DNA of 64,000 nt from a virus (IMGVR_UViG_3300047321_000298:128001-192000), one strand, 5' to 3'; positions 16,137 through 64,000 are shown, numbered from the stretch's first letter. A program made the numbers and translations. The notes: a model not told the origin generated them from the sequence alone.

Positions 16137-16138
16137 AC

Positions 16139-31017: not shown

Positions 31018-31023
31018 TAAATA

Positions 31024-31064: not shown

Positions 31065-31078
31065 CGGAGCTACAAAAA

Positions 31079-31811: not shown

Positions 31812-32689
31812 AAAAAGATGCATTCGGGGACCGCATGAAGCGGTACGAACTGGAAGATGCCGGACGCCGCTTGATGCCGCGTCTGCCGATCATGGCTCGG
31901 TTAGATGGTCGCGCGTTCCACTCCTTCACCCGTGGCCTGGAATACCCGTTCGACGCACGGTTCACCCACTGCATGATCGAGACGATGAAGTTCCTGGTTA
32001 AGCACTGGAATGTGACGCTGGCGTATCGCCAGTCGGACGAAATCACACTGTACTGGGAAAACTCGGACATCGACGCGCAGATGCCGTTCGACGGCCGGGT
32101 CCAGAAACTGGTATCGCTTCTCGCTTCGTCTGCATCGGTTCGTTTCTACCAGCTTATCCACGAGCACCTGCCGGAAAAGGACGACAAGATTCCTGAACTT
32201 GACTGCCGCGTGTGGCAGCTTCCGACCTACGGCGAGGTCTACAACGCGTTTCTGTGGCGCGAGCAGGACGCGACTCGCAACTCGTTGCAGATGGCAGCAC
32301 GTTCGCTTTACTCGCACAAGCAACTGCACGGTAAGGGCTATGCGGCACTCCACGACATGCTGCATGAAAAGGGCGTCAACTGGAACGACCTACCTGCATT
32401 CTTCAAACGCGGGACCTACGCGCGCACGTTTCGGTCCGTGAAGATTTTCACGAAAGAAGAACTGGAAGCGATGAACGACAAGGCACGGTCCCACGCTCTA
32501 CAGAACCCGGTTCTTCGGTCTGAGGTTCGCTGCGTCGTCGCTAACCCGCTAAGCGAATACGGGATGTTGGCCAACTTGCTCGCGGAAGCTGGCTCCGAGG
32601 AATCCCCAATCAGCAAAGGCATGTTGCGGGAAGCCCGTAATCGGGAAGCCCTGAAGAAAAATGGTCTTGTCAATTGGAGCTTCAAGTGA
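31808..32689 (+). CDS. tRNA(His) guanylyltransferase Thg1-like protein (3'-5' polymerase)
   Basis: GDRMKRYE, RLDGRAFH, QSDEITL, FDGRVQK, DCRV, WREQDA.RNS motifs. Confidence 0.93.
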   Translation: MKKDAFGDRMKRYELEDAGRRLMPRLPIMARLDGRAFHSFTRGLEYPFDARFTHCMIETMKFLVKHWNVTLAYRQSDEITLYWENSDIDAQMPFDGRVQKLVSLLASSASVRFYQLIHEHLPEKDDKIPELDCRVWQLPTYGEVYNAFLWREQDATRNSLQMAARSLYSHKQLHGKGYAALHDMLHEKGVNWNDLPAFFKRGTYARTFRSVKIFTKEELEAMNDKARSHALQNPVLRSEVRCVVANPLSEYGMLANLLAEAGSEESPISKGMLREARNREALKKNGLVNWSFK

Positions 32690-33234
32690 GCCGAGAAGAA
32701 TACGTACCGAACGAACGCATCGTGGACCGCGCTGTTTATTTGTGGCTCAAGGCGCTCCGTAAGCCTCAGTACAACAACGGCGGCGGTCTTGAATCCTTCA
32801 TGGCGTCAGGTATAGCTTCCATGCTTCCGAAGAATAATGACGAGCAGACACTCGCTCGCTTCGGTGCCGAACTCAAAACGCTGCTGATGAGTGGAGAGGT
32901 GAGCCAATACGGGAACGGAGAGTCGTTCACGCATTATCAGACGTATCTGGGCGTGGACTACCACCCCGACAAAACACTGAGTACTGCGGCTGAGGCGGCC
33001 GGATTGAAGATGGAGTTCCCGTGGAAAACGTCCATGCATCTGTGGACTAACTACGTTCAGTTCAGTCTCGGCTACGGTAACCGTGGGCTATATCACTACC
33101 CGCTGAGCAACGGCAAGTGGTTGCTTACGACGTTGACCGGGGCTCCGGAGCACGTCACGGGGCTCTGCGAGCTTGCGGAAAGCAGGCTTAGCGAGGGTGC
33201 GCCGTGCCCAATCTTCTATCACATCGAAGAGTGA
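32686..33234 (+). CDS. hypothetical protein
   Basis: GTGA overlap. Confidence 0.7.
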   Translation: MSREEYVPNERIVDRAVYLWLKALRKPQYNNGGGLESFMASGIASMLPKNNDEQTLARFGAELKTLLMSGEVSQYGNGESFTHYQTYLGVDYHPDKTLSTAAEAAGLKMEFPWKTSMHLWTNYVQFSLGYGNRGLYHYPLSNGKWLLTTLTGAPEHVTGLCELAESRLSEGAPCPIFYHIEE

Positions 33235-33237
33235 TAA

Positions 33238-34044
33238 ATGCGCCAAAGAATCATAGAAGCCCTTCGCTGGATCGAGCACAAAGAAAAGGTCAAGATTCTC
33301 GTTGCTGTCGAAGCCGGGTCGCGGGCCTGGGGCTTCGAGTCCCCAGACTCTGATTTCGACGTGCGCTATGTGTACGTCCGGCGACCGACTGCCTACCTGG
33401 AAATTGACGACCGGCGCGATGTGATCGACCACTACCACCAGCAACCGTATATCCAAGGATCGGGGTTTGATGATCCGCTGCTTGATATCACGGGGTGGGA
33501 CGTGAAGAAGGCTTTGCAATTGCTGCGCAAAGGCTCACCCCAACTTCAGGAGTGGTTGAACAGCACCACGATTTACATCGAGGGCCAACGCCAAAGCTTG
33601 CTTGATCTGTCGAATTCGATCAACCGGTTTGAGCCTGTGTACATGTTCTATCGGTCGATGGCAGCGAACAACTTCCGGACGTATCTGCAGGGCGACATGG
33701 TTCGCTACAAGAAGTATTTGTATGTGATTCGTCCACTGCTCGCTGCCCAGTGGGTCCTGACGTATCGCACGTTTCCACCTGTCGATTTCCGGACGCTACT
33801 GCTCGATGTGATCCAGCAGTACGAGACGATGTTCCCGCACCTACGCGAAGCCATCGAACGGCTGCTCGAACGGAAGGCTAAGGCCAGCGAGTTGGAGGAC
33901 GCGCCGCGTGACGAGGTTTTGCACGAGTGGATTCGATGGGAATTTGACCGCAAACCCCATCAGATGGATGACCCGGTGTCAGACCCGACGCCCCAACTGA
34001 ACAGTTTCTTTCATCGGGTGCTATGTGGAAAAGAGCTACGTTGA
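33238..34044 (+). CDS. RlaP/YcgL-like DNA pol-beta-superfamily nucleotidyltransferase
   Basis: EAGSRAWGFESPDSDFDVR (GS...DxD), GWDVKKAL, KKYLY..RPLL. Confidence 0.9.
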   Translation: MRQRIIEALRWIEHKEKVKILVAVEAGSRAWGFESPDSDFDVRYVYVRRPTAYLEIDDRRDVIDHYHQQPYIQGSGFDDPLLDITGWDVKKALQLLRKGSPQLQEWLNSTTIYIEGQRQSLLDLSNSINRFEPVYMFYRSMAANNFRTYLQGDMVRYKKYLYVIRPLLAAQWVLTYRTFPPVDFRTLLLDVIQQYETMFPHLREAIERLLERKAKASELEDAPRDEVLHEWIRWEFDRKPHQMDDPVSDPTPQLNSFFHRVLCGKELR

Positions 34045-46433: not shown

Positions 46434-46444
46434 TTCAATTTCAT
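46434..46444 (+). promoter_or_regulatory. TTCAATTTCAT motif (candidate late promoter)
   Basis: Exact 11-mer also at 51100; both head virion-type gene blocks. Confidence 0.4.
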
Positions 46445-46525: not shown

Positions 46526-48079
46526 ATGAAACTTAATGCAGCGTCACGCTTGACCGCTAACTGGTGGGACAATCTCGGACCGGATGGTCAGGCCCAATAC
46601 CTCAAGGACCACCCGAACTCGGAGAAAGCCAAGGAAGCCCGCCAGCAACAGCAGAAGACTGGCGAGAAGCCAAAGGCTGAAGAGAAGCCGAAAAAGGAAG
46701 AGCCACAGAAGCAAACTCCGAAGGCTGACGACGAGCCGGACGCAGAAGGGAAAAAACAGAAGCCGGAACCGGAGCAGAAAAAGCCGGAACCAAAGGCTGA
46801 CGATTCCGAGCAGAAGCAACCGGAACCAAAGGCTGACGAACCGGCCGCACAGGAGCCGAAAGCCGCACCCGGGATCGATGAGAAGCCGAAGCAAAAACCG
46901 CTCGCTCCTGGCCGCCCGTTGGCAGACTTTGCGAAAGAACGCGACGATCCGACCTTCACTGCGGAGAAGCTGTTCGCAAAGCTGAAGCCTGAGGATGCTC
47001 AGGAAATCAAGGACAAGACGCAACAGGCGATGCGCCTGCCGCCGTCCGACAAGGAATACATCAAGAACGGCGAGTACACTCCGGAACGCAAACGGCTGCA
47101 CCAGGAGATTACCCGCAAGATTCTCACACCGGACCGCATCAAGGCCGCGACGCCAAAGCCTGGCGAGAACCCGACGTTCATCGTGCTCGGTGGGCGTGGG
47201 GGTTCTGGCAAATCTTCGTTCACGCATAACGAGGAAACCGGCGCACCTGCGACAGTCAGCGAGTTCGATTCGTCCAAGTTCCTGACGCTGGACGCGGATG
47301 CGATCAAGCAGATGCTGTATCCGCCGTATGAAGGCTGGAACGCGAACCAGGTGCACGAAGAATCGTCCGAACTGTTCGATCAGATCATGAAGACGGCGCA
47401 AGGCATGGGTCTTAACATCATCTCGGATGCGACGCTCAAGTCAGACAAGATGGGCTCGCAGTTGGAAGAACTCGCAGCGAAGGGTTACGACATCGAGGGG
47501 CACTACATGTACCTGCCGCGTCAGAAAGCTGCTGAGCGCGCTTGCGGACGCTACCTGAAGGATGGCCCGGGTAACCGGGGCCGTCTGGTGCCGCCTGAGG
47601 TTATCTTGGGCAACGTCAACAACGAAGCGAACTTCGACAAGCTGAAGAAATATTTCAAGCGCTGGTCGGCCTACAACAACGATGTGGCTCGTGGCGAAAA
47701 TCCGCAGTTGATTGACCATTCCGATTTGAATCCGAAGAAGACTGATGCACGAGTCGTCAAATCGTCATATAATCGAAGCGTCGTAAAGGCACACCAGCTT
47801 CTTTTTGGTGGCCTGCGTAGGCTTTTGCTGGCAGATAACGAGGGGGCCGATATGGGCACTCAGGAACAAGAACAACCGCAATATACCGCCGACTCGTGGG
47901 AAAACGATCCGTATCTCACGAACAATCCTGAACGTGAAGCGCGGGTGAAGCGTGACACGTACCCGATGATGAAGGCGCTTGGTATCCGGACCTCGCAAGT
48001 CAAGGACCCGCAGACGAAAGCTGAGTACATCGCCTATCTCAAGGGCGAACAGGGTGCTAAGGACGAACAGAGCGAGTGA
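46526..48079 (+). CDS. zeta-toxin-like P-loop kinase with low-complexity N-terminal half; AAxRL N-terminus
   Basis: IVLGGRGGSGKS Walker A, LDADAIK, VHEES, ISDATL, GR.VP; KEPQ-rich repeats. Confidence 0.85.
   Translation: MKLNAASRLTANWWDNLGPDGQAQYLKDHPNSEKAKEARQQQQKTGEKPKAEEKPKKEEPQKQTPKADDEPDAEGKKQKPEPEQKKPEPKADDSEQKQPEPKADEPAAQEPKAAPGIDEKPKQKPLAPGRPLADFAKERDDPTFTAEKLFAKLKPEDAQEIKDKTQQAMRLPPSDKEYIKNGEYTPERKRLHQEITRKILTPDRIKAATPKPGENPTFIVLGGRGGSGKSSFTHNEETGAPATVSEFDSSKFLTLDADAIKQMLYPPYEGWNANQVHEESSELFDQIMKTAQGMGLNIISDATLKSDKMGSQLEELAAKGYDIEGHYMYLPRQKAAERACGRYLKDGPGNRGRLVPPEVILGNVNNEANFDKLKKYFKRWSAYNNDVARGENPQLIDHSDLNPKKTDARVVKSSYNRSVVKAHQLLFGGLRRLLLADNEGADMGTQEQEQPQYTADSWENDPYLTNNPEREARVKRDTYPMMKALGIRTSQVKDPQTKAEYIAYLKGEQGAKDEQSE
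46784..46839 (+). repeat. intragenic 36-nt-period direct repeat (PEPKAD)
   Basis: CCGGAACCAAAGGCTGACGA at 46784-46803 and 46820-46839. Confidence 0.85.
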
Positions 48080-48082
48080 TCT

Positions 48083-48586
48083 ATGACCTTCATCCAGCGT
48101 CTACTGGCAACAGCAGACGGGGAAGAGGATCAGGGGCCACTGGCTGACACTGAATATTGGGCAAAACGCGGCGCAGGTTGTGTGCTAATGGCACAGTCTA
48201 CGCTGCGTTTTCTTTTGCCCATGCGCTCCGCACAGGTTTCCGAACCCCACACCTACGGCACGTGGGGTGGCGGAATCGACGGATCAGAAAGTCCTGGGGC
48301 ATCCGTTCGTCGCGAGCTACGCGAAGAAGCCGGTTATGTCGGTGTTTCCTCCCTTTACCCGTTGCTCGTCTATCGCGATCTTGATCAAGGTCGCGTCTAT
48401 CACAATTTCCTCGCCGTCGTCCCTGAAGAGTTCGAGCCCGTTCTGAACTGGGAGACGGAACACGCAATATGGGTGCCATTTGACGAATTCCATCAACCTC
48501 TGCATCCGGGGTTGGAGTCCTTGCTGAAAGACCCGTATTCAATACGAACGATCAATTCGCATATGGAGCGGGCTTATCATGTATAG
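48083..48586 (+). CDS. Nudix hydrolase; RLLATA N-terminus
   Basis: GTWGGGIDGSESPGASVRRELREEAG Nudix box; LHPGL. Confidence 0.9.
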   Translation: MTFIQRLLATADGEEDQGPLADTEYWAKRGAGCVLMAQSTLRFLLPMRSAQVSEPHTYGTWGGGIDGSESPGASVRRELREEAGYVGVSSLYPLLVYRDLDQGRVYHNFLAVVPEEFEPVLNWETEHAIWVPFDEFHQPLHPGLESLLKDPYSIRTINSHMERAYHV

Positions 48587-48788
48587 GATACATTGGCAGT
48601 GGGTTGTAATTAATGGCGCAGTATCAACGGCCGATATGTTCGTCACGGTATTTTCGCTCATTGTCATCTCACAATGCATTCCGTGTTTTGCGATTCAGCT
48701 TGTTTCGTCGCTGTTTATCCGACAGCCCTACGAACACTGCCTGAGAGCTAAACGCCGGTCCCGTTATATCCAAAGGGTGGCGACATGA
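48579..48788 (+). CDS. possible hydrophobic hypothetical protein
   Basis: Overlaps both neighbours (ATGA at the end) but atypical composition. Confidence 0.35.
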   Translation: MYRIHWQWVVINGAVSTADMFVTVFSLIVISQCIPCFAIQLVSSLFIRQPYEHCLRAKRRSRYIQRVAT

Positions 48789-49291
48789 ATGCAGCGCACA
48801 GACTTTTAGCTACCGCCATTCATCCGGAAGTTCAGCATATGGTGGATACAACGCTCAAGATGCTAAAGCGGAAGTTTCCGAAAGTCCCCAAAAAGCTGAA
48901 GGTTGTTTTTGAAAGGCGGGTGGGCGCTACGTTCGATCCGTGGGACTGGGAACTCAAGATGTCTGACTACGGGCTCGATCAGCCGCTGCACGTGGTAGAT
49001 AAAGAGGAAGATCAGGCTCAAGGCCCCGGAACCCTCCAGTACGGTCTGGAGGGCACCCTAATCCACGAATTCGGGCACGCGGTCAACGCAACGATCATCA
49101 AGCTCCACAGGCAGGACGATGACGCTCTGGGCGCATGGCAGCAGACGAAGCATGAATTGGAGCAAAAGCTAGGACACCCATCGGCCTACGCGAAGAAAAA
49201 CAATAGCGAGTGGTTTGCTGAACAGTTCCTGTACGAGATGAAGGGCCACGGGCATGCGCTGCTCGATGCAATCCAAGAGTGGAGCAAATAA
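48785..49291 (+). CDS. zincin-like HExxH metallopeptidase; AAxRL N-terminus
   Basis: GTLIHEFGH...PSAY...NNSEWFAEQF. Confidence 0.8.
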   Translation: MNAAHRLLATAIHPEVQHMVDTTLKMLKRKFPKVPKKLKVVFERRVGATFDPWDWELKMSDYGLDQPLHVVDKEEDQAQGPGTLQYGLEGTLIHEFGHAVNATIIKLHRQDDDALGAWQQTKHELEQKLGHPSAYAKKNNSEWFAEQFLYEMKGHGHALLDAIQEWSK

Positions 49292-49878
49292 TGAAGATAC
49301 ACGCAGCGCAACGATTGCTCGGCTCCGCGTGGCAGGGGCACTTCAAGCTGGAGCTACCGGACGCCGTACGCGAAGAAATCCACGACATCATGAACAAGCT
49401 GTCCGCAGATTTCCCCACGCTGGCACATATCAACATCGAAGCTGGCGATCCGGAGTGGATGGAGAATATTCTCGCAACGAAGAGTCTGACGGCGCTGTAC
49501 CTGAACGCTCATTATTTTCAGGACCCCGAAAAGCTGCGTGTGCATTTCGAGAACTGGAAGGGTTTGCAGGTTGAACCAACGCTGACGGGCACGATTATCC
49601 ACGAGTGCGGACACATTCTGGCCAATCAGGTGCTGCAAAAAGCGGGCGCGCGTAAATTCAATAACGTACTAAAGAAACACCTGAGTGATCTTAACGGCAT
49701 CTGGAATTATGAGAGTCCCTCGTCCTACGGCCAGGAGAACACCTCAGAATTTCTCGCTGAAGCGTTCGTTGCACATTATCTCGGCAAACACGCGTGGGAC
49801 CCGATAGGTGAGTTCGGAACAATGTCTATGGCAACCAGCAATGCAGTCTGGACAGCCATGCGCAAACTTTTGAAATAG
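49291..49878 (+). CDS. zincin-like HExxH metallopeptidase (paralog of 48785); AAxRL N-terminus
   Basis: GTIIHECGH...PSSY...NTSEFLAEAF; TAATG coupling. Confidence 0.8.
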   Translation: MKIHAAQRLLGSAWQGHFKLELPDAVREEIHDIMNKLSADFPTLAHINIEAGDPEWMENILATKSLTALYLNAHYFQDPEKLRVHFENWKGLQVEPTLTGTIIHECGHILANQVLQKAGARKFNNVLKKHLSDLNGIWNYESPSSYGQENTSEFLAEAFVAHYLGKHAWDPIGEFGTMSMATSNAVWTAMRKLLK

Positions 49879-49887
49879 GAGATTAGC

Positions 49888-50283
49888 TTGACTACAGGAA
49901 TCAATGCGGCGCATCGGCTAATCGCAGCCTCTGCTGAAGATGCGATACGCGAAGCAATCAACAACGCACCCAACCAGCACATCGGCAAGCCGTTCCCTGT
50001 CGTCACTCACTTCAACGGCGTGACGGTCCCCTTTATGGCCTACATCACGCGTATCGCTAACTCTGCGGAGCAGATGCGCGGGTCTTTCACCAAGGTCACT
50101 CTGACAACGGTGAAATGGGGCTTGCTGATCAAGGGTCATCCAAAGTGCTGGATTGCGGCGCACTACATACTGGATCAAAAGAACCGGCTGAAGGAAAGCG
50201 GCTTACCGTCGCGTATCGAAGACCACGAAGCCGAAAAATTCTTCCACGACTGCGGTGTTCCGGTTCCTCCCCATCTCCAGTAA
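49888..50283 (+). CDS. hypothetical protein; AAxRL N-terminus
   Basis: AGGAG RBS, TTG start, INAAHRLIAA. Confidence 0.7.
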   Translation: MTTGINAAHRLIAASAEDAIREAINNAPNQHIGKPFPVVTHFNGVTVPFMAYITRIANSAEQMRGSFTKVTLTTVKWGLLIKGHPKCWIAAHYILDQKNRLKESGLPSRIEDHEAEKFFHDCGVPVPPHLQ

Positions 50284-50318
50284 ATAAAAAGTAGGTACAC
50301 AAAAACTGGGGTGGCAGA

Positions 50319-50765
50319 GTGGCAAAGCAGGCTGATGAAGATCGCATGGCTATGGACATCGCGTATCTGGCGGCTGAACGGTCTCATGATCCTAAGCATG
50401 GAGTCGGGTGTGCAATTGTGACACCCGACCACATGATTACGCTGGGCTGGAACGGGATGCCTCAAGGTATGGACAACCAGATGCGCGAGCCGCGTCTCGT
50501 GCGAACCGCTTGTGGCTGTCTGCATTTCCAGGACAAGACCAAGCCGGAAGTCATGCATGCCGAGTTCAACGCTCTATCGAAGTTCGTCGGATCGACAGCT
50601 TCCACAGAAAACGCAAAACTCTACACGACGTTGAGCCCGTGTCTCCCGTGCGCGATATTCGCACATCGAGCCAAGATCGAACGCGTGATCTACGACCAGG
50701 TGTACCTGGACGGGGCAGGAATTGAATTTCTGCTTGAACGGGGAATAGTAGTCACGAGGATTTGA
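50319..50765 (+). CDS. dCMP deaminase
   Basis: GWNG, HAEFNAL, TLSPCLPCA motifs. Confidence 0.92.
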   Translation: MAKQADEDRMAMDIAYLAAERSHDPKHGVGCAIVTPDHMITLGWNGMPQGMDNQMREPRLVRTACGCLHFQDKTKPEVMHAEFNALSKFVGSTASTENAKLYTTLSPCLPCAIFAHRAKIERVIYDQVYLDGAGIEFLLERGIVVTRI

Positions 50766-50768
50766 TCA

Positions 50769-51068
50769 ATGGGTGGGTATGTATTTGACGGGATAGGTTC
50801 AGCAGCGAGAGAAGCACAACGACTCGAAGCGTGGACAGCGGTTAGAGAGGGGCTCCACGGCATCAACGGACAGTGGTTGACCAACTACCATGAGCAGTCG
50901 GTGACGTTCAGGCACAGGAGGCGAGGGCACAACGTAAGGGTAACGCTAGCTGGCGAGGTCTACACTGACCTGAAGTTGCGCGCAGGAGCGTACAAATCGA
51001 ACGTTCACAAGTCTGATCTGAAGTCGGCGCTGATCTACACCAGGCAATTTCTCGAAGAGCACGTATGA
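50769..51068 (+). CDS. hypothetical protein
   Basis: GAGGA RBS. Confidence 0.6.
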   Translation: MGGYVFDGIGSAAREAQRLEAWTAVREGLHGINGQWLTNYHEQSVTFRHRRRGHNVRVTLAGEVYTDLKLRAGAYKSNVHKSDLKSALIYTRQFLEEHV

Positions 51069-51071
51069 ACG

Positions 51072-51099
51072 AAGCCCGCCATAGAGCGGGCTTTTTCAT
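51072..51099 (+). terminator. intrinsic terminator
   Basis: AAGCCCGC-cataga-GCGGGCTT then TTTCATT. Confidence 0.85.
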
Positions 51100-51110
51100 T
51101 TCAATTTCAT
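51100..51110 (+). promoter_or_regulatory. TTCAATTTCAT motif (candidate late promoter)
   Basis: Immediately after a terminator, ahead of the neck-like gene block. Confidence 0.4.
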
Positions 51111-51141
51111 AGCATCGACTACAAATTAGTGAGGTGCCACA

Positions 51142-52389
51142 GTGCCCTACGTTGATCGCTCAAATTCCAGAATAATGCCTGCAAACTCGCGCACCGCCGA
51201 CGTTGCAGAAAAGGCGATCCAGGAAATTATCCCGGTGCAGCAGCGTCGTTACTACGATAGCTTTCGCGTGCAAGGCATACAGTGCATCCATTATTCGCGA
51301 CTCACCTCCGGACGCAAGTGCAACTGTCAATCTTCGGCAAAACAGTTGAATGGTCTGCTCGATAAAAGCGGTAAGGCGAGCACCGGAACCATCAACCAGT
51401 TGTTGACCGGCAACCTCGAATTCAACGTCACTCCGTACAACTTCGATCAGAAGAGGCTCCCCGGAGTAACGAGCGCCCAGACTTCTCCGCAGGCACCAGC
51501 AAACAAGAATCAGGGGGTGTTCGACATCGCGACTGCGTCCGACGATATCCCGTTTGCTGACCTGATCAAAGGGACGCACGGCATGGGCGACAACGGTCCA
51601 GTCGAAAACACGACGATTGATGAACTCGTGGGTGACTGGGACCCTTCGATCATGGGCTTCTCCGACGTTGCGTGCCCGATCTGTTTCGGTACCGGCTTCG
51701 TATCCGGTTTCTCACCGTTTCACGGTCACCGTCAGGTGCTGGCCGTGCCCGATGTTCAGTTGCTGGCTGGCTCTGACATCGACACGCTCAAGCGCCCATT
51801 CACAGCACAGACACCCGGCTTCAACGTCGTCGTGATACTGCCCGCTGGAGCCATTGGAATTGACGTGTTCCGCGTCTGGAATATGGCGAACCCCGTGAAC
51901 AATGTGCAGATGTCGGTTGACGGTACGCCTCTCACTTCAGAGGCACAGTTGATGCAGTACTGCAACGGCAAACCACATCTGTTGCGCTTCACGGGGCCGA
52001 ACGGTCAACCGTTCGAATTCACGCACCTCGAAATACAGTTCCAGTTGACTACAGAATCTGTGTACTTCGAATTCCCCAAGCGCTCAACTTCGAACAACAC
52101 GGACCTTCTCGAACAGATGGAGCCGTTCAACATCATCGTTTCACCCAATCTCCCAACTCTCGAATCGATGGACATCATCGTTGAGCAGCAGCTAGGAAAA
52201 ATTCTGGTTGTTCAGAACACGAACCCTTGGCGTTCGCGTCAGCGAAACGTGCTGGGATGGGAAGCACAGGTGCGAGTGATCCAGCCCATGGAACTGTTCC
52301 GTATCTTGCCGATGCGTGGGCGGGTGATGAACAAAGACGCGACCACTAGGATGGTGCGGCCGAACTCTACAGGACCGCGCGTCACTTAA
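51142..52389 (+). CDS. probable virion neck/head-completion-type protein
   Basis: GRKCNC and CPICFGTGF..G motifs seen in jumbo-phage neck-type proteins (from memory); position. Confidence 0.55.
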   Translation: MPYVDRSNSRIMPANSRTADVAEKAIQEIIPVQQRRYYDSFRVQGIQCIHYSRLTSGRKCNCQSSAKQLNGLLDKSGKASTGTINQLLTGNLEFNVTPYNFDQKRLPGVTSAQTSPQAPANKNQGVFDIATASDDIPFADLIKGTHGMGDNGPVENTTIDELVGDWDPSIMGFSDVACPICFGTGFVSGFSPFHGHRQVLAVPDVQLLAGSDIDTLKRPFTAQTPGFNVVVILPAGAIGIDVFRVWNMANPVNNVQMSVDGTPLTSEAQLMQYCNGKPHLLRFTGPNGQPFEFTHLEIQFQLTTESVYFEFPKRSTSNNTDLLEQMEPFNIIVSPNLPTLESMDIIVEQQLGKILVVQNTNPWRSRQRNVLGWEAQVRVIQPMELFRILPMRGRVMNKDATTRMVRPNSTGPRVT

Positions 52390-52398
52390 GGACGATAT

Positions 52399-53202
52399 AT
52401 GGAAGCAGCAAAAAGACTGGCAGCATCGGAAAAATCATGTTCGATGGAACTACCGCGTTTCCGTTACATGGACGACGTGACGCGGTATCTGTCGAACATG
52501 CGGTCAGATATCGAAGACTCTGAGAATCTAATCAGGGTTACACAGAAGGCGCTGGCGTCGCTCACCAAAGCAAAGATCGAAGCACAAAAGATCGACCCGG
52601 AAATCAAGAAGAAAGTCGTGCCGTCCGTGTCAAAGCTCCAGTCACAGTATGGCCTGATTGAAGACCTCTACGAGAAGCACCGGACACTGGAATCCGTCGA
52701 GTCGCAGATCACGCTGCAGTTTCCCGTGCGCAAGGGCGAGGTCTACGAGCGGACAACTGCGACGCTGCGTGAACTGAAGAAGAAAGTGGAAACACAGTTG
52801 CGGACGGTTCTAGATTTCCTTCGCGACATCTCGAACAAGCACGAGCCCAAGTCTTTCGCGAAATATCGACAGGCGGTGATTCAGGAAATTCAGGAGCGGC
52901 TGGAATTCCGCGACTCCGAGCAGTATCTGTATGTGTCCACTGCCGACTCTGACCTGATTTTCACCTCGTACTTCCTGTTGAATGACGTGCTGACAGAGGA
53001 CAGGCGGAAGGTTCCGAACCTGTACGTATCTATTCAGTGGGTGGTTGGTACAGGCGTCTTCACGCATCTGTCCAACGAGTTCGAACTCCCCGAAAGTCTG
53101 ACACACGAGCCGGGTACCGAGTGCAAGACGATGGCGGAGACGGTCACCTCGCTTTCGAACCTACTCAGCGCAGAAGGCTTCTTCAATAAACAAGGTAAAT
53201 GA
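52399..53202 (+). CDS. hypothetical (probable virion) protein; AAxRL N-terminus
   Basis: MEAAKRLAAS; AAGGA RBS; coiled-coil N-half. Confidence 0.75.
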   Translation: MEAAKRLAASEKSCSMELPRFRYMDDVTRYLSNMRSDIEDSENLIRVTQKALASLTKAKIEAQKIDPEIKKKVVPSVSKLQSQYGLIEDLYEKHRTLESVESQITLQFPVRKGEVYERTTATLRELKKKVETQLRTVLDFLRDISNKHEPKSFAKYRQAVIQEIQERLEFRDSEQYLYVSTADSDLIFTSYFLLNDVLTEDRRKVPNLYVSIQWVVGTGVFTHLSNEFELPESLTHEPGTECKTMAETVTSLSNLLSAEGFFNKQGK

Positions 53203-53203
53203 T

Positions 53204-53566
53204 ATGTACGCGAAATTAGATAGGCGTCAGGGGCAATTCCACAGCGTGGAGCTAAAGCTTGTGTCGAAACAGGGGAAGACGCTGAAGAACTGGTGCAAGC
53301 CTGAAGAAATGAACACGTATCTCAGAGAGAACGGCTTCAGGAATGGCCCTGGCGGCACGCTCGAAACAGACAAAGAGTTGCAGAAGAAAGGAACGTTCGC
53401 AGACGCCCAGCACCTCGCTACAGACGGAGACTTGCCGATTGGCAACTTGGACATGAAGACAGGAGGCGGCGTGAATAACTACGCGATGCCCTCGATCCCG
53501 GTTCAAGGCGCGGCAGAGCGGCTGCTCGCAACCAAAGAATGGCCTTTCCCTGAGAAGGATGAATGA
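53204..53566 (+). CDS. hypothetical protein with C-terminal AAERLLAT
   Basis: AAGG RBS. Confidence 0.7.
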   Translation: MYAKLDRRQGQFHSVELKLVSKQGKTLKNWCKPEEMNTYLRENGFRNGPGGTLETDKELQKKGTFADAQHLATDGDLPIGNLDMKTGGGVNNYAMPSIPVQGAAERLLATKEWPFPEKDE

Positions 53567-55113
53567 TTATGGCGGCACCCTTTCTGTTTTTCAAAGAAGT
53601 CCTACCCGACCTGTCGTATCAGGTAGACATCTCGCAGTACATCAACCAAGCCGAAACGATTACGTCAATCGTAGCCTCTGCGCCGCTTCCCACATCGTCC
53701 GCACCCCTGGCCGTCACGATCACCTCAGGACTCAGTCCCGTGATCCGGATGACAGCATCTGGCGGCAATGAAGCTGTGAGCTACGGCTACACACTGACGG
53801 TCACGACGACAGCACAGGTGCTTCTGTTCACGGTCGCAATCACCGTACAGGACCCGTCCTTTGTTCCGTACATCACTTCGAACCCAAGCGCCTTCCAAGA
53901 CCTCGTTGACGAGATTCAAGCGGGCGACGCGGCAATCGCTTCATCCGTTTTCGCGTTTCCTGCCGGTATCGATCCTTCAGGCGGTTTCGTCACGTGGGAG
54001 CTTCTGGCGAGTGACGGCACAGTGTATTCAGCCGGTAACGCGTTCGAGTACAAGATCATCCAGAATGGTCTGTCGAACACGGTGATTTCGCGCTGCGTTA
54101 TCTCGGTTCCGTCCACGGTCCCGCCGTCGCTGGACGGCCAGAAATACCAACTTCGATACACGCTGGCTCTGCCTCAGGACTCAGGAACCCCACAAGACCC
54201 GACGACCGGCGCGCTGTCACAGAACACGTTCTTCCAGTTCGAAAATATCCGCGTCGTATCGCTTACGAACGTTCCGCTCGGTACTCAGCCATCTGTGGAG
54301 CTTCAGGGCGTCAACGCAACTGTTTCGCTGGTCACAGATAAGCCCTACGACAACGTGACGGTTGAAATATGGGCGGGTACTTCGCAGGTTGCTCCCGCGT
54401 CGGTGATTCAGGAATTCGAGCGCACGGCGACTGGTTTCTGCTTTTCTGGCGTGATCAACACGTCACAGTTCCAAGTATCGCTGGTTCCGTATCAGGTGAT
54501 CTGGAAATACTGGGCGTCGAATAATCCCGGTGTCGTGTACCAAGAATCGGCCGATCTGTTTGTGATCAACCCTTCGATCATGAACGCGATCAACAACGTC
54601 AAGGACAAGATCAACAAGGCGCGCACAACGCTCTACGGTCATCCTGATCTGTTGTATCCGAACGCCGTGATCATGACTTGGCTGCGCCGTGGGGCAGATG
54701 CGTTTAACGCTGCATACGGTCAGTTCACTAGCTTCACCATGACCGACGCGCTGGGCCCGATCCGCGAATTCTGGCTGCTCGAAGCCGAACTGTCAGCCAT
54801 CCGAGCGCAATACCTGGCTGAGGGTGAGAAAGCATTCGACTTCCAAGGCGGTGCAATCTCACTCGAAGTGGATCGTACGCAGTATCTCGATACTGCTGCG
54901 CAGGCGATAGAAAACGTACTCGATCAACAACTGAAGCTGATCAAGCAAAACCTGATCATCAAAGGCAACACGTCCGGAACAGGCGCGTCTGGAGCGAACG
55001 CTGGTGCCCTTCAACCGGGTGCTATCGGGGCCGTTGGAATCACCATCACTCCCGCAAGCATGTTCGGACGTTTCTCCCCAGCGTATGGACTAAGTGGGCC
55101 GCGCAATTTGTAA
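53563..55113 (+). CDS. probable virion structural protein (beta-rich N-terminus, head-tail adaptor-like C-terminus)
   Basis: Thr/Val/Ser-rich beta segments; helical C-terminal EGEKAFDFQGGAISLEVDRT region. Confidence 0.6.
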   Translation: MIMAAPFLFFKEVLPDLSYQVDISQYINQAETITSIVASAPLPTSSAPLAVTITSGLSPVIRMTASGGNEAVSYGYTLTVTTTAQVLLFTVAITVQDPSFVPYITSNPSAFQDLVDEIQAGDAAIASSVFAFPAGIDPSGGFVTWELLASDGTVYSAGNAFEYKIIQNGLSNTVISRCVISVPSTVPPSLDGQKYQLRYTLALPQDSGTPQDPTTGALSQNTFFQFENIRVVSLTNVPLGTQPSVELQGVNATVSLVTDKPYDNVTVEIWAGTSQVAPASVIQEFERTATGFCFSGVINTSQFQVSLVPYQVIWKYWASNNPGVVYQESADLFVINPSIMNAINNVKDKINKARTTLYGHPDLLYPNAVIMTWLRRGADAFNAAYGQFTSFTMTDALGPIREFWLLEAELSAIRAQYLAEGEKAFDFQGGAISLEVDRTQYLDTAAQAIENVLDQQLKLIKQNLIIKGNTSGTGASGANAGALQPGAIGAVGITITPASMFGRFSPAYGLSGPRNL

Positions 55114-56357: not shown

Positions 56358-56795
56358 ATGGAAAACGAACAGCAGTTGCAGCAACTGATTACGCTGTTTC
56401 TCGAAATCAATCCGAACCCGTCAGATCAGCAATTCCACATGCTGGCTGACAGCATCGGTGTGGATCACGAAGCACTTGAAGCAGTGTCGTACGCGATGCT
56501 TGCCAAGGATGGTCCGCAACAATCTGTTATGTCCGGAACCGAAGACCTGTCGGAATCGCAAAAGGTTCTGGACGGTGACTACGATCCGAACGTCACGTCG
56601 CCCGATGATCTGCTGTTGAACGACGGCGCACCCGAAGGCACGTCGAACATTCAGGAACTGCAAGACGACCTGTACGACGATGGCGTGGCGGCCGACGACA
56701 TTGGGCTAGGCGTATCGAGCGATAAGGATGCGATGGTTTCTGATGGCGCACCTGCCGTCCAGTTGAAAGCACACTCACGACTCATGGGTGGCTAA
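56358..56795 (+). CDS. acidic hypothetical protein
   Basis: GAGG RBS after AGTAAATA (56333); ends LKAHSRLMGG. Confidence 0.75.
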   Translation: MENEQQLQQLITLFLEINPNPSDQQFHMLADSIGVDHEALEAVSYAMLAKDGPQQSVMSGTEDLSESQKVLDGDYDPNVTSPDDLLLNDGAPEGTSNIQELQDDLYDDGVAADDIGLGVSSDKDAMVSDGAPAVQLKAHSRLMGG

Positions 56796-57906: not shown

Positions 57907-60900
57907 ATGAAACTGCGCCCCTCTACAAATCTGATCGTCCCGCAGCATCTCGCCCTTCCGCGCGCTCAACTGAAAACGGGGTTCTTCCATGTGTACGGCG
58001 CGCACTATGCGGGCTCTCCGGTCATGTACATGACGAAGCTATGGGCGTCGCTGTTCTTTCCGTCCCTAACGCTGAATCCCAAGTTCGGACAGTCACGCAA
58101 CCGGGCGAAGATCGGAGATGCGCTGCGCAGGCTCACGCGTCCGTCCTACCTCAAAGTCAAGATCGAGCGCCAGTTCAAGGACCCGCACATCATTGCGTCG
58201 GTTCCGGTCTTTTCGTGCTCTGCAAACAATGCAGGCGGCGCATTCTCTTTCCTTTACGATCACTTCGTGCGCCCACCGCGCACGAACGACGCGTACATGC
58301 CAACGGCCGAACAGGAAGCAGAAATTCAGGGACTCCGGGCGTATTTCACGGACGAGTCACAGGAGGCTCAGGAGATTGTCTTTTCTCCGCTTCAGGTGCT
58401 GCACTCGCTCCGACATCTGACTCAGAATGAGCAGGGGATGCTCCGCCAGTCTCTGCAATCAGTGCGAATCGTGCGGAAGAAGGGGCTTGCGGTTTTCTTC
58501 GTTGACTTCAAAATCACGAGAGCGGAAGCGCAGCAACTCACCACAACCGAATGGCACCAGCTTCGCGAAATCGACATCTATCCGCTGCTCCTGCAATGGA
58601 CGATGACTAGTTTCGGTGAGCGTGAACCAGCGCCGCTGGCATCGTTCCCGATTTCGAAGATTGCACTGTCGTTGCCCGCGTCTCACGTCGAATCGGCGCG
58701 CGTCAGTGAGCATGGGCTGTCGATTGGGCCCAACGGCAAACCGTACTACCTGCCGCGATCAATTGATCGTCAGCATACCGTTCAATACGAGGATGCATAC
58801 ACGCAGGCCGGTATGCGTCCGGATGGATCGTATGCGCTGACAGACATTCACGAAGGGGCAGAAGCTCACGCGGCCGGTACGGAAATCAAGGTGAAGCTTC
58901 CGAAGTCTGTGCCTGTCCTGATCGACTGGGTGAACAACAAATATTCGTACACGGATACGAACGGGCTGCTCCACGTGATGGACCTGATGCGTTTCCGGAA
59001 GGCTGAGATTCCGCACGTCCGCATCTTGCTCGCAGAACACTACATCACCGAAGAGCGTTTGGAGCTATTCCTGAAGTTGGGGAAAGCTGCGGGCGTCAAG
59101 GACATGGAGTTCATGCCAACAAACGACGATCTTGAACGCGCGCCGTACACGATTCGTCACGAGTTGATGCGTGCGGCCACGCCTAAGCGGTGGTTTGATG
59201 TTGCGCTGCTCGGCTGGCAGATCGATAAGGACCGCGAGGACTTGCCGTTCCGGGAAGTGTCAGCTACCGCTTACCCGCCGTTCCGGCCGCTGGCTGAGTT
59301 TCTCAAGCTGATCTGCAAAGAAGTGTTGGCGAACCTAGCTGCGGTGTATCGTGAATATTCGGTGCGAACGGTCATGGAGAATCTGTCGTGGCTCGTGATG
59401 ATGGCTGAATACAACGAGCGCTTTGACCAGATACAGGCTGAGGACTTGCTCATTCGCAAACCCGCAATCGAGCAGGGAGTACTTCCGGATTGGTCACTTC
59501 CGGAGTGCCCGCTGATCAACCGTTCGCTTGACATCGGTCTGATTCCCCATCAGGTGAAAGTCAGGAACCTGCTACGCGAATCGCCGCTGTTTGCGTTGAT
59601 TCCGGTGCAGGCGGGCGGAGGTAAGACTCTGTTGCTGCTGACTGACATCCTGTACGAAATCCAGCGCGGAAATCCGGGGCCTTTCCTCATCATGTGCCCG
59701 GGGCATCTGGTTTCGAACTACGTGAACGAAGTGCTGTATTTCACGGGCGGGCGTATGAACGTGATGCCCGTCACGTCTGCGGTAATTCGTGAGCATGGCG
59801 TGGAGCGCCTACAGGAAATGATGGAGGCGCTGCCCATTAATTCGCTGGTCGTCGTGGACTACGACACGTTGAAATACCGGCAGCAAACAATCTGCTACGG
59901 AACGACACCGGTCGCTTTGTATCCAGTGATCGATTTCCTGCGTCAGTTCAGTTTCGCGTACGCCGGACTTGACGAGAGTCACCGCGTGAAGCGGGATACG
60001 GCACGAACCAAGGCCGCGATGTGCCTGATCACGGATATTCCGAAACTGCGCCTGGCGTCAGGCACGATGGCCCATGATTCCCCGTCAGATATCGCGATGC
60101 AGGTTGCTTCGATGGACCCGACATTGTTCGGCACGCGCGAGGAATTCAACCGTAAGTACGGATCGTATGTATCGGGTGGTCGGGTCATGCATTGGAGAGA
60201 GGGCGCACAGGAACAGATCAGACACAAAATCAATTCGCGGATCGTCGTGGCTGGAGCCATGCGCAAGGAATGGGCTGCATTCCTGCCGACCAAACGCGAA
60301 TGGATCGGCGGTGTCGAACTCAAAACTAACCAGCAGCTAGTGTACGACTCGATTCTTGAAGAGACGTTGGAAAAAATCCAGGAGGATGCGAAGGAGAACA
60401 AGGAACTCGCGAAGTTCCTGAAGCCCCAAACGAGCATTGTGCCGAGCCAGAACGATCCAGAAGCGGACGACGATGATCCGCTGGACGAAGACGCCGGGTC
60501 GGACCTCGCGTCGCTTCTACGGCCGTATTTGGCCCGTCTGGAGCGATTCTTGTTGGCACCGGGCAAAGACGAGCTTGGGGCGAAGCTACTGGAAGGCAAT
60601 GATCTGGTTTCACCGAAGGCTAAAGCTGTAATCGAGCGCCTCAAGCTGCACATGTTCGGCGGGAAGGTCCGGGATTCAGAAGGGGTGGAGCAGGAAGTTG
60701 GCCCAACACCTGGAAAGGTCCTGATCTTCACGAACTACATTATCTCGGCTGAAGCGATTTGGGAGCTAGCTGGTCCGGAGCTTCAGAAGTGCGGGATTCT
60801 GTACAAGGCCGAAGACAAGTCCGAGTGCGTTGCACGCTTCGAGAAGCTCGATTCGCTGCAATGGATGGTCGGTGTCGAGCAGTCGATGAACGAAGGTTTG

Positions 60901-62475
60901 AATTTCCAGTTCGTGAGTCGGACGATTCGACCTGAGGCTGTGTGGAATCCGGGGACTCTCGAACAGGGTAACTCCCGGACCGGGCGTCCTCAGTTGAAGA
61001 CGGTCGATCAGCGTACGTCCGTCTACTACGATTCGCTCGTGATAAACCGGACAATCGACATAACGAAGACTGCGCGACTCATCTCGAAAATCATTTCCGT
61101 GGCGAAGTTCGAGAACTCGGAGAATCCGGAATTCAGCACCATACCGGATGTTCCGATCATCAAGATGTCGCTTGATGCAATCCAGATGTTCAACACGTGG
61201 GAGTACATTGACGATGCACATCCGGGACTAGCGTCGTACGCTGCTGCGCTATCGAAGTACGAACAGGTACGTAATAGGGACTATGAAGCGTATCTGTCGA
61301 AGTATGTGTCGAAGTACGGCAATCGCCCAGTTCGTACAGCAATCCCAATTGCAGACGATCCTGAGGGTTCGGCGTTCATGGGGTCACTGCCGTATGTACC
61401 CGGCTCAGACATCCCGATGAAGGAGCGAATTCGCGCCGTACGCGTTGATGATTACCTCAACCAGATCGAAGAAGAGTTGTCTGACTCGGACGAGGAAGAA
61501 TCGGAGGGTTCGCTACAGCGCAAGATCGAGTATCTCAAGACACGACGAGTGCACACGTCATTTGGCGAAGGTCAGGTGCGGCGCTGCGGCCCGAACTCGA
61601 AGCACGTTCTCGTGCAGCTTGATTCGGATTACTCCGTGGCCGTCCGAAAGTCTGCGTGTTTTATGCTTCAGGGAAAGACTCAGGAATCGGTGCGCGAGGT
61701 CTTGGCCGAACGTTTGCGACTGGACTTCAAGAAGGTGCGTGCGGTACCTGCGTCACTCTTCAAGGAATCCCGGCAGAAATCGAAAGCTCGAATTCTGCGC
61801 GAGCAGCGCATTGCGGCTAGAGCAGAACGTGTGCGAATTCGCGAACGACGTAAGGCGCTGAGTATCAAGCTGTCACTCGTCATGAGCAACGGGTTCTTCG
61901 GACTGTCGTATGCAGCGGACGACAATCAGAAGGCAATGCAAACGCTTCAGGCGAACGGTTTCCGTTCGAGTGCCGCGTTCTACTTTGCAAAGCTCGGATC
62001 GGGTAAGGCTCTGGCACGGCAGTTGAATCGCTGGGAAGAAAACGGCCTGCAGCCGGATCGCAAACACCTGAAGGAGGGTTCTGCTCAGTGGTTCTCTGAA
62101 GTGTACCAGCAGATGGAAGCAGGAATCACCGGCCAACGATCTATCAATCGATTGCATCGCGCGGGCGTTCCGAATTTCTACCAGGTGAAGCACGTCGCGT
62201 GCGCTGACCGGCACGTGATCAAGCCGTACCCAGTTGTCGAAAATGGCGAGGTTTTCCTTGCTTTGCCTAAGGAAAATCAAGCTTGGACGAAAAATGCGAT
62301 CCGCCACTCTTCGCTGGAGTGGTTCGAGGGTGAGCCTTCGCTAACCTATTTTGGATCAATCAAGGATGTGCTACGCGTCGCAAAAGACCTGAAAGCCTCA
62401 GGAATCACTGTGCAAAACGCTGCATCCATCAATCGTAGCTTCAAAAAGCTGCGCGGACTCACAGTACGTACATAG
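57907..62475 (+). CDS. 1522-aa SNF2-like superfamily-2 helicase/ATPase
   Basis: AGGGKT, LDESH, ASGT, KVLIFTNY, WNPGTLEQGNSRTGR motifs; long unassigned N- and C-terminal regions. Confidence 0.85.
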   Translation: MKLRPSTNLIVPQHLALPRAQLKTGFFHVYGAHYAGSPVMYMTKLWASLFFPSLTLNPKFGQSRNRAKIGDALRRLTRPSYLKVKIERQFKDPHIIASVPVFSCSANNAGGAFSFLYDHFVRPPRTNDAYMPTAEQEAEIQGLRAYFTDESQEAQEIVFSPLQVLHSLRHLTQNEQGMLRQSLQSVRIVRKKGLAVFFVDFKITRAEAQQLTTTEWHQLREIDIYPLLLQWTMTSFGEREPAPLASFPISKIALSLPASHVESARVSEHGLSIGPNGKPYYLPRSIDRQHTVQYEDAYTQAGMRPDGSYALTDIHEGAEAHAAGTEIKVKLPKSVPVLIDWVNNKYSYTDTNGLLHVMDLMRFRKAEIPHVRILLAEHYITEERLELFLKLGKAAGVKDMEFMPTNDDLERAPYTIRHELMRAATPKRWFDVALLGWQIDKDREDLPFREVSATAYPPFRPLAEFLKLICKEVLANLAAVYREYSVRTVMENLSWLVMMAEYNERFDQIQAEDLLIRKPAIEQGVLPDWSLPECPLINRSLDIGLIPHQVKVRNLLRESPLFALIPVQAGGGKTLLLLTDILYEIQRGNPGPFLIMCPGHLVSNYVNEVLYFTGGRMNVMPVTSAVIREHGVERLQEMMEALPINSLVVVDYDTLKYRQQTICYGTTPVALYPVIDFLRQFSFAYAGLDESHRVKRDTARTKAAMCLITDIPKLRLASGTMAHDSPSDIAMQVASMDPTLFGTREEFNRKYGSYVSGGRVMHWREGAQEQIRHKINSRIVVAGAMRKEWAAFLPTKREWIGGVELKTNQQLVYDSILEETLEKIQEDAKENKELAKFLKPQTSIVPSQNDPEADDDDPLDEDAGSDLASLLRPYLARLERFLLAPGKDELGAKLLEGNDLVSPKAKAVIERLKLHMFGGKVRDSEGVEQEVGPTPGKVLIFTNYIISAEAIWELAGPELQKCGILYKAEDKSECVARFEKLDSLQWMVGVEQSMNEGLNFQFVSRTIRPEAVWNPGTLEQGNSRTGRPQLKTVDQRTSVYYDSLVINRTIDITKTARLISKIISVAKFENSENPEFSTIPDVPIIKMSLDAIQMFNTWEYIDDAHPGLASYAAALSKYEQVRNRDYEAYLSKYVSKYGNRPVRTAIPIADDPEGSAFMGSLPYVPGSDIPMKERIRAVRVDDYLNQIEEELSDSDEEESEGSLQRKIEYLKTRRVHTSFGEGQVRRCGPNSKHVLVQLDSDYSVAVRKSACFMLQGKTQESVREVLAERLRLDFKKVRAVPASLFKESRQKSKARILREQRIAARAERVRIRERRKALSIKLSLVMSNGFFGLSYAADDNQKAMQTLQANGFRSSAAFYFAKLGSGKALARQLNRWEENGLQPDRKHLKEGSAQWFSEVYQQMEAGITGQRSINRLHRAGVPNFYQVKHVACADRHVIKPYPVVENGEVFLALPKENQAWTKNAIRHSSLEWFEGEPSLTYFGSIKDVLRVAKDLKASGITVQNAASINRSFKKLRGLTVRT

Positions 62476-63470: not shown

Positions 63471-64000
63471 ATGGCAAAAATCCCACAGGCGTTTGCAAAC
63501 GCACTCTCAAAGCAGAAAGCAGCACCCACCGTCTACGTCCCGCAGAAACCAGACGCGACGATGGAAGACATGATGGATTCCCATTCGGTCGGCACGATGT
63601 CTCAGGGTGTAGAGACATTCGACGCTGAGCGGGAACCCGGAAAAATTCAGCAAATGAATAACCCGGACGGTGAAGAGCGCGGCAAGATGGATTTCGAAAC
63701 CTGGCTGCCATTCGCAGCTAAGGTCTACAAGATCAGCCCGCGTATCGAAGACTACATCATCGTCAACACGCTGATCTGTCCTTCAGACATTCCGAACCGA
63801 AACGGTATTGCGTTCCCCGCGACCGAACTCGGACGTTTTCTCCCACCGCCGATGAATCGCATGGTTTACAAGGCGTGGGCCGGATGTCCCGTGCATCTGG
63901 AGCATGACAACGAAGTGCACGAAAAAGCGTACGGCGTGATTCTTGACGCAGCCTTGATGAAGGTTGCGGGTTTCGGTGGCGGAAAGCTCTGGAAGGTTAT
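63471..64000 (+). CDS. putative prohead/capsid maturation protease-like protein, truncated at window end
   Basis: GGAG RBS; open to the window end; hand translation gives PNRNG.AF...EL and YKAWAGCPVHLEHDN....AYGVILDA, resembling jumbo-phage prohead proteases. Confidence 0.55.
   Translation, partial: MAKIPQAFANALSKQKAAPTVYVPQKPDATMEDMMDSHSVGTMSQGVETFDAEREPGKIQQMNNPDGEERGKMDFETWLPFAAKVYKISPRIEDYIIVNTLICPSDIPNRNGIAFPATELGRFLPPPMNRMVYKAWAGCPVHLEHDNEVHEKAYGVILDAALMKVAGFGGGKLWKV

Follow-up and report, generated by a model that had tools for sequence, protein, structure and literature searches.

The choice of the non-structural proteins that travel with a phage particle is known in molecular detail for few systems, mainly for T4 and partly for P1 and phiKZ. 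The present analysis concerns a short peptide (below, the tag) that stands at the start of a number of proteins that are not otherwise related. Their source is a jumbo myophage akin to phiRSL1 (RSL1), BcepSauron and Motura. The tagged genes were noticed at positions 46,526–53,566 of a stretch of 64,000 nucleotides, here called the window, which comprises bases 128,001–192,000 of the 245,517-bp virus record IMGVR_UViG_3300047321_000298, a record with direct terminal repeats. In our opinion, which by analogy with the systems below we hold at about even chances, the tag is a short docking motif by which some 20 unrelated proteins would be drawn into the virion during its assembly, with the interior of the prohead as the most probable site.

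In phage T4, a capsid-targeting sequence is common to diverse internal defence proteins; these clients are anti-restriction factors encoded in variable gene arrays, and the peptide brings them into the prohead core, from which they are ejected with the DNA (PMC3012670). The locus studied here is similar in having a peptide of about ten residues at the extreme N-terminus of diverse, often small proteins (IPI, IPII, IPIII and Alt in T4), and the mark of a T4-type sequence, a common short N-terminal peptide on unrelated proteins of one phage, was found on 19 open reading frames (ORFs). The preliminary description of the window had drawn this analogy, and it is apt, as is that with the N-terminal signal of P1 DarB. 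The T4 peptide reads MKTYQEFIAE; LNAAxRLxA[ST] has no sequence similarity to it, the lineage is unrelated, and the two are not homologous. The phage under study also differs from T4 in the number of clients (19–20 against about 4–5), in the sizeable enzymes among them, in the internal, C-terminal and multiple copies of the peptide, and in that no obligatory removal by a protease is evident.

In P1, the 30 N-terminal residues of DarB suffice for packaging, and the signal is longer than 9 and not longer than 30 residues (PMC9024508). Common to both phages are a loading signal at the N-terminus, putative in the present case, and a DarB-like SNF2 protein, encoded here in the head module. However, P1 relies on a stepwise hierarchy of few Dar proteins with no consensus tag reported, and the DarB-like protein of the window is untagged. 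Polyvalent proteins were inferred to be injected with phage DNA, and their hub domain is the zincin 'MPTase' (Iyer, Burroughs, Anand, de Souza and Aravind 2017, PMC5512222). Zincin, zeta-kinase and Nudix domains in a late, structural context were found here as well, and both groups of proteins would serve as early-strike effectors; the giant multi-domain fusion that defines polyvalent proteins is absent, however, the tagged proteins being small and separate.

The jumbo phages phiKZ and SPN3US package many non-structural proteins in their heads, and the corresponding genes are partly clustered (PMC13282480). Their lineage is not related to the present one, and the tag is missing even from the sister PaBG group. 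The inner-body proteins of phiKZ and SPN3US have long propeptides, which the head protease cuts at S/A/G-x-E, and we know of no short common N-terminal consensus in the ejection proteins of these phages. Finally, the cargo-loading peptides of encapsulins and the N-terminal packing signals of extracellular contractile injection systems (eCIS) are short, flexible, terminal, position-tolerant and transferable peptides that dock cargo in an HK97-fold shell or a contractile-tail particle. Their sequences and systems are different, and the likeness is one of mechanism only.

Census of the tag and its bearers

A scan of the whole proteome, which the preliminary description had proposed, yielded 19 ORFs that open with M-x(0-3)-[LI]-N-A-A-x-R-L-x-A-[ST]; six of them, those seen before, lie in the window and 13 beyond it. 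The further 13 occupy genome positions 199,616–206,143, 8–14 kb past the end of the window; they follow the sheath gene directly and flank the tube gene on either side. Alignment on the arginine gives the consensus M-x(0-3)-[LI]-N-A-A-x-R-L-[LIVT]-A-[ST], in which R and L are invariant (19/19) and alanine occupies position −3 in 18/19 cases. When the genome was searched in six frames with a 12-column profile of the tag, the same 19 sites were found at E ≤ 0.03, the only further row being a partial match of seven residues (E 2). The minimal pattern A..RL starting at residues 2–9 was seen in 18 ORFs, whereas 1.65 were expected (Poisson P ~3e-13), and all 19 tagged ORFs are located within 12.9% of the genome. 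The N-termini quoted earlier are all present where they had been placed, behind Shine–Dalgarno-like sequences.

Conservation at the level of protein and not of DNA had also been suggested, and the codons bear this out: five Arg and five Leu codons are used at the invariant positions, 32% of identical residues are codon-matched, and the nucleotide identity of the tags is 58%. Since the codons vary at fixed R and L, the tag is under peptide-level selection. A cause at the level of DNA (promoter, downstream box or recombination site) is ruled out by this nucleotide identity together with the scrambled synonymous codons, and a Sec/Tat-type secretion signal by the lack of a hydrophobic core after the tag, as seen by direct reading.

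The same data bear on the idea that the tag is merely inherited, being a duplicated N-terminal module that was spread by duplication or recombination and has no present function. In the second cluster, several small tagged genes stand side by side, perhaps as a result of tandem duplication, and three proteins have a further common module after the tag. On the other hand, synonymous codons are scrambled with R, L and A fixed, the tag is borne by unrelated folds, it persists across genera whose major head proteins are 62–82% identical, and it is gained and lost within orthologous families. Simple inheritance, already disfavoured by the codon and conservation data, is very improbable.

A possible 20th tagged ORF (94 aa, GTG start) is located outside the window at genome positions 15,965–16,249. 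It opens with the tag MRVDAANRLAAD, ends in another copy (ELNAAARLAVATPNI-stop), and adjoins the genes of a 751-aa protein and of a repeat-rich fibre-like protein.

Apart from the tag, the bearers are unrelated, as had been stated; Zeta, Nudix and zincin folds were recognised among them with Pfam, in agreement with the earlier assignment of a zeta-like kinase, a Nudix protein and two zincins (Table 1). In protein 1, the tag is followed by a module WW..L....Q.YLK.HPNS, by a linker rich in Lys, Glu and Pro, and by a P-loop kinase domain of the Zeta-toxin type at residues 207–375 (PF06414, E 4e-20, 72.6 bits against a cut-off of 22.3). With its Walker A sequence GGRGGSGKS intact, it is predicted to be a Zeta toxin kinase. 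Protein 2 matches PF00293 (E 1.5e-13, 51.4 bits against 21.1), and its Nudix box Gx5Ex7REUxEExGU is intact (G-GIDGS-E-SPGASVR-RELREEAGY), which points to a Nudix hydrolase; it also matches a PHROG of portal fusions. Its orthologues are tagged too (BcepSauron gp099 with MEAAYRLL, RSL1 ORF109 with MKINSAFRLLVTS).

Protein 3 scores above the threshold of PF07737 (ATLF-type; E 4e-7, 30.3 bits against 27.4) and has both HExxH and a conserved downstream Glu in EWFAEQF, so that it is classified as an ATLF-like zincin. Its Foldseek matches, to lethal-factor and ArdC-type zincins, are weak (template modelling (TM) score 0.5). Protein 4 is 27% identical to protein 3, with the active-site columns in common; it retains HExxH and matches phrog_7153 (zinc-finger protease), and its PF07737 score of 26.5 bits is slightly below the 27.4 cut-off. 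For the 131-aa and 267-aa proteins and the small tagged proteins, nothing informative was found in Pfam, PHROGs and Atlas. In general, the tagged proteins are of 64–517 aa with at most one recognisable domain each. Five of the six in the window are of moderate size; those of the second cluster (n = 13) are mostly of 64–156 aa, with no family detected.

A second shared module, W[WF]..L....Q..Y[LI]K.HP.SK(YA), follows the tag directly in three clients, namely the zeta kinase, a 376-aa protein and a 109-aa protein (window 46562–46640; L002 8950–9020 and 10972–11040; L003 25570–26380). It is repeated three times in BcepSauron gp075 and precedes the tag, in reversed order, in BcepSauron gp098 and RSL1 ORF112. 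A similar sequence was noted in PhiXhv-12, a phage without the tag, in a 126-aa protein whose gene follows that of the tail tube. The module might be a part of the loading apparatus.

Table 1. Tagged genes and accompanying features of the window (positions counted from its first nucleotide)
Feature	Position	Strand	Remarks
Tagged protein 1, 517 aa, zeta-type kinase	46526..48079	+	Tag MKLNAASRLTA at 46526-46558
Tagged protein 2, 167 aa, Nudix hydrolase	48083..48586	+	Degenerate tag MTFIQRLLATA
Tagged protein 3, 168 aa, zincin metallopeptidase (HEFGH)	48785..49291	+	Tag MNAAHRLLATA
Tagged protein 4, 195 aa, putative second zincin (HECGH)	49291..49878	+	Tag MKIHAAQRLLGS
Tagged protein 5, 131 aa	49888..50283	+	TTG start after AGGAG; tag (M)TTGINAAHRLIAAS
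dCMP deaminase, untagged, mid tagged block	50319..50765	+	PF00383; untagged also in RSL1 and BcepSauron
415-aa conserved protein, untagged	51142..52389	+	AATTTCAT upstream; phrog_21298; orthologues RSL1 ORF115 and BcepSauron gp095
Tagged protein 6, 267 aa	52399..53202	+	Tag MEAAKRLAAS
120-aa protein with tag copy near C-terminus	53204..53566	+	GAAERLLAT (53510-53536)
Head-tail connector, 516 aa, untagged	53563..55113	+	phrog_17327, E 1e-76
145-aa acidic protein ending in tag copy	56358..56795	+	LKAHSRLMGG-stop (56763-56792)
SNF2-type helicase, 1,522 aa, untagged, within head module	57907..62475	+	
Head maturation protease, 306 aa, 5' part	63471..64000	+	Continues past window end; phrog_18299, E 2e-86
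Promoter-like octamer AATTTCAT	46437..46444	+	89 nt upstream of first tagged gene; second copy 51103-51110

Position, flexibility and conservation of the tag

The structure of the first zincin (protein 3) was modelled with AlphaFold2 from an alignment of 10 sequences (predicted local distance difference test (pLDDT) 87, predicted TM score (pTM) 0.85). Residues 1–9, i.e., exactly the tag, have a pLDDT below 50, and the globular domain begins at about residue 13. In an exhaustive HMMER search, remote zincin homologues aligned only from query residue 9–12 onward. The low pLDDT of the tag, together with the start of homology after it, marks it as an appended flexible peptide, which is separable from the folded cargo and stands outside the catalytic fold. 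In nine orthologues of this zincin, R6, L7 and L8 are invariant (RLLA[ST] is kept), while residues 2–5 drift.

Copies of the tag at or near the C-termini of the ORFs starting at 53204 and 56358 had been reported before; both are present and are kept in homologues. The BcepSauron homologue of the 120-aa protein, gp093, has two copies, one of them at the extreme C-terminus, and in the RSL1 homologue, ORF117, a single copy lies inside the protein and precedes a domain of 160 aa. Among the homologues of the 145-aa protein, BcepSauron gp090 has a C-terminal copy, RSL1 ORF125 two internal copies and Motura gp180 one. BcepSauron gp098 ends ...VELHAAERLLDS..., and in gp075 a second copy is found at residue 205, at the point where a separate tagged protein begins in the window's phage. 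The conserved acidic protein whose gene lies between those of sheath and tube bears the tag at its N-terminus and again in its interior; RSL1 ORF141 carries it twice, each time internally. Positional tolerance and multiple copies are marks of a short linear docking motif, and because the copies are N-terminal, internal and C-terminal, the tag is to be regarded as such a motif and not strictly as a cleavage site.

The tag may, nevertheless, serve mainly as a propeptide, whose cleavage by the head maturation protease would combine recognition and removal in one event; this sub-case of head targeting is, in our view, improbable. The T4 capsid-targeting sequence is removed by gp21. Some tags are followed by A-[ST]-E (RLVASE, RLVATE and RLAASE here; ATEV in RSL1 and L011), similar to the x-x-Glu at which proteases of the T4 and phiKZ types cut. 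Processing of head proteins is known from the sister group PaBG, where the mass of the major head protein falls by about 20%. A cut near residue 70 of the counterpart in the window's phage would fit this figure, and it is near this residue that homology to the deposited phage G capsid chain begins. Against a propeptide, the extreme C-terminal copies (RLMGG-stop, RLMGQ-stop, RLAAGA-stop) leave little or nothing to remove, Glu at +5 was found in only 3/19 tags of this genome, and the likely maturation region of the major head protein, at about residue 70, contains no tag-like sequence. The 526-aa scaffold-like protein contains a tag-like stretch, NASAKQRLAAAK, which was dropped since homologues of the protein do not share it. 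The preliminary description had taken the tag for a capsid-targeting and cleavage signal. The targeting part gains support from a selected, transferable peptide that is apart from the folds, from the structural modules and from the polyvalent-type cargo; the cleavage part is weakened by the extreme C-terminal, internal and multiple copies and by a likely head maturation region unlike the tag.

In the N-terminal arm of the major head protein (L005 9964–10150), residues 34–46, GE[IL]NASSKRDLIN, are conserved down to PhiXhv-12. GE[IL]NASSKRDL was compared with the tag (ELNAAxRLL); the register and spacing differ, and the resemblance is no more than a lead. The likeness could be due to chance, or the tag could mimic a scaffold-binding segment of the capsid protein.

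The relatives of the phage were arranged by the identity of their major head proteins, which is 82% for the Burkholderia phages BcepSauron and BcepSaruman, 76% for the Ralstonia phage phiRSL1, 73% for BCSR5, 62% for the Achromobacter phage Motura and only 37–43% for PaBG and the Erwinia, Dickeya and Xanthomonas jumbo phages. In addition, 25 IMG/VR (metagenomic) loci were fetched via the same protein. The tag is conserved in all the culturable relatives and in about 15 of the IMG/VR relatives. In BcepSauron, it was found on the Nudix protein gp099, gp091, gp077, gp075, gp253 (two genes past the portal) and gp276 (beside a tail-fibre gene). In phiRSL1, the Nudix protein ORF109 and ORFs 111, 120, 123, 124, 126, 127 and 133 are tagged, in the flavour I.AAV.RL.ATEV. 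Motura has at least eight tagged proteins, encoded between the connector and helicase genes and after the tube gene, in the flavour IQA.ARL.A; LNAAxRL is another such lineage-specific flavour. Nudix orthologues are tagged in three genera.

In the IMG/VR loci, tagged ORFs were met repeatedly behind the sheath gene as well as behind the tube gene and in the gap that separates protease from scaffold; in one locus (L016), the tagged ORF of this gap is a zincin. Strict tags in 438 kb of related loci number 37 distinct ones on the gene strand against 4 on the opposite strand. In PaBG, the 50 kb that surround the head and tail genes have no tag, and neither has the corresponding region of Xanthomonas phage PhiXhv-12; therefore, the tag is specific to the RSL1, Saruman and Motura lineage. 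Gel-based virion data for PaBG were considered as a proxy and are not transferable, since the PaBG head and tail genes have no tag around them. The zeta gene is absent from all the cultured relatives, and the list of clients thus turns over between related phages.

Destination of the tagged proteins

According to the reading that we favour, the flexible peptide of 9–10 residues would dock its bearer onto a component of the assembling particle, presumably the scaffold, the inner capsid surface or another core protein. Once docked, the bearer would be enclosed in the particle, be expelled from it together with the DNA and take effect as the next infection begins. The head protease may trim those tags that have A-[ST]-E behind them; cleavage is at most optional. 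The case for delivery is indirect: enzymes directed at the host would be out of place in late structural operons if they did not travel on to the next cell. In every genome examined, the tags are restricted to structural modules, and the proximity of the block to a prohead protease gene, noted earlier, is part of this pattern, the tags being confined to structural and late modules near the protease, scaffold and major head genes. In relatives, some tagged genes stand directly between the protease and scaffold genes and others beside the portal (BcepSauron gp253).

The kinds of cargo point in the same direction. Members of the zincin family occur as small stand-alone proteins and are also embedded, some with several copies, in proteins of 549–2,370 aa. 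Among phages, the zeta domain has its closest relatives as internal domains in gp030 of cyanophage PSS2 and gp114 of halovirus HCTV-5. The former (1,499 aa, annotated 'head morphogenesis') is encoded a few small genes downstream of the portal gene; the latter (1,293 aa, with a ParB nuclease domain) is encoded between a Mu gpF-like gene and the head protease gene. By analogy, the lineage may deliver, as separate tagged proteins, the kinds of domains that other phages string into giant injected polyvalent proteins.

A number of observations weigh against this reading. No virion proteome for the clade was found in the literature, and in the preprint on the close relative Matilda the virion composition is said to remain to be determined; nor was any description of the tag found in the accessible literature on RSL1-like phages. 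No bias in charge or pI was found in the tagged proteins, a charge bias being sometimes seen in DNA-embedded internal proteins. The orthologues of protein 6, RSL1 ORF116 and BcepSauron gp094, have no N-terminal tag as annotated, and the tag is, judging by RSL1, not obligatory for that family. The block includes a metabolic gene, that of the untagged dCMP deaminase, and is thus not purely structural. In addition, most tagged genes (13/19) are neighbours of the tail sheath and tube genes and not of the head genes. Prediction of a complex of zincin residues 1–40 with the major head protein and the C-terminal domain of the scaffold-like protein gave a score of 0.00, which speaks neither for nor against the reading.

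The tag may, alternatively, be another kind of docking peptide, which would bind a non-virion partner in the infected cell without packaging of its bearers. The partner could be of phage origin (a chaperone or a hub protein), come from the host, or be a processing protease, for which the tagged zincins themselves are candidates, and the tag would coordinate the activity, stability or localisation of late proteins. The occurrence of N-terminal, internal, C-terminal and multiple copies, as in generic short linear motifs, agrees with this explanation, and zincins of this class have been proposed to process polyvalent proteins. It is, however, not very likely: the synthesis of a zeta kinase, a Nudix protein and zincins from late structural operons is then hard to explain, and so is the limitation of the tag to structural modules. 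Moreover, the 41-kb structural regions of RSL1 and BcepSauron, the regions that were scanned, have tags and no HExxH protein; therefore, it is improbable that the tag is read by zincins in all cases.

The position of the second cluster raises the question of whether the tag leads to the tail and not to the head, bringing cargo into the tube lumen or baseplate, as in eCIS, or marking tail assembly factors. Thirteen tagged genes come immediately after the sheath gene, on both sides of the tube gene, and in nearly all the relatives a tagged, largely disordered acidic protein with further internal copies is encoded between sheath and tube. BcepSauron gp276 adjoins tail-fibre genes, gp253 is near the 'tail tube initiator', and the possible 20th tagged ORF is next to fibre-like genes. 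Yet in phages the tube lumen is normally occupied by the tape measure protein, and it seems a narrow space for some 20 kinds of protein, one of them a kinase of 57 kDa. Further tagged genes belong to the head cassette (the gap between protease and scaffold in relatives; beside the connector here), and the cargo domains are of types known from head-associated proteins. We consider the tail as the destination quite improbable. Returning to recruitment into the assembling virion, the reading with the best support is a capsid-targeting label or, worded with more caution, a virion-targeting one.

Surrounding genes and significance for the lineage

The surroundings of the tagged block are collinear with those in RSL1 and BcepSauron. 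A megablast search of the region against phage records gave no match. The order of genes is Nudix, dCMP deaminase, 415-aa conserved protein, connector, DarB-like SNF2 helicase, head maturation protease, acidic scaffold-like protein, decoration-type virion protein, major head protein, tail sheath and tail tube. The untagged dCMP deaminase serves as a negative control inside the tagged block. The SNF2-type helicase is kept in RSL1, BcepSauron and Motura, and its homologue was named a DarB-like antirestriction protein in the Matilda preprint. If the helicase is packaged, it must use another route.

The head protease is named as such by its PHROG alone, Pfam and PDB sequence searches being blank, and its AlphaFold2 model (alignment of nine sequences, mean pLDDT 44.6) was too poor for a fold search or classification. 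Between its putative catalytic Ser (NTYSMGA) and a C-terminal conserved block, there is an invariant Cys-rich insert, C..C...C.....C.H (L005 6471–7391), which looks like a zinc ribbon within a prohead protease. In one IMG/VR relative (L029 5051–7036), the protease forms the C-terminal 150 residues of a 661-aa ORF. This fusion of the protease to a large N-terminal extension recalls polyvalent proteins that end in assemblin-type peptidases.

The octamer AATTTCAT has 10 copies in the genome, seven of which are intergenic, correctly oriented and 33–89 nt before a gene start. Sites other than those in Table 1 include genome positions 194113, 202051, 87977(-), 58167(-) and 53246(-). Among the downstream genes are the first tagged gene, the gene of the 415-aa protein and the head decoration gene. 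The number of copies in the window alone is not above chance, and the genome sites are too few for statistics. The octamer is a candidate phage-specific, perhaps late, promoter element. Elsewhere in the window, at 28073–34044, there are, judging by ORF translations alone, seemingly genes of NAD salvage and of a tRNA-repair type, including a 489-aa ORF (29548–31017) and a Thg1-like ORF starting at 31808.

Summarizing what these data may mean for the biology of the lineage, we would suggest, tentatively and at somewhat less than even chances, that RSL1-like jumbo phages replaced one giant polyvalent protein with a plug-and-play, position-tolerant motif of nine residues, which serves about 20 clients of fast turnover per genome. 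In a still more unusual variant, a part of the payload may be loaded into the contractile tail instead of the head, by analogy with eCIS. If RSL1-like phages do rely on such a motif, domains of polyvalent proteins can also be delivered unbundled, and the injected payload of a whole clade of jumbo phages would be predictable from sequence alone. Each genome would then provide about 20 candidate early-acting effectors or anti-defence proteins, mostly without an assigned function. The hosts of the clade belong to Ralstonia, Burkholderia and Achromobacter, and such phages are studied for biocontrol and therapy. For this clade, the tag could be a portable cargo-loading tag, by which foreign proteins would be loaded into these phages.

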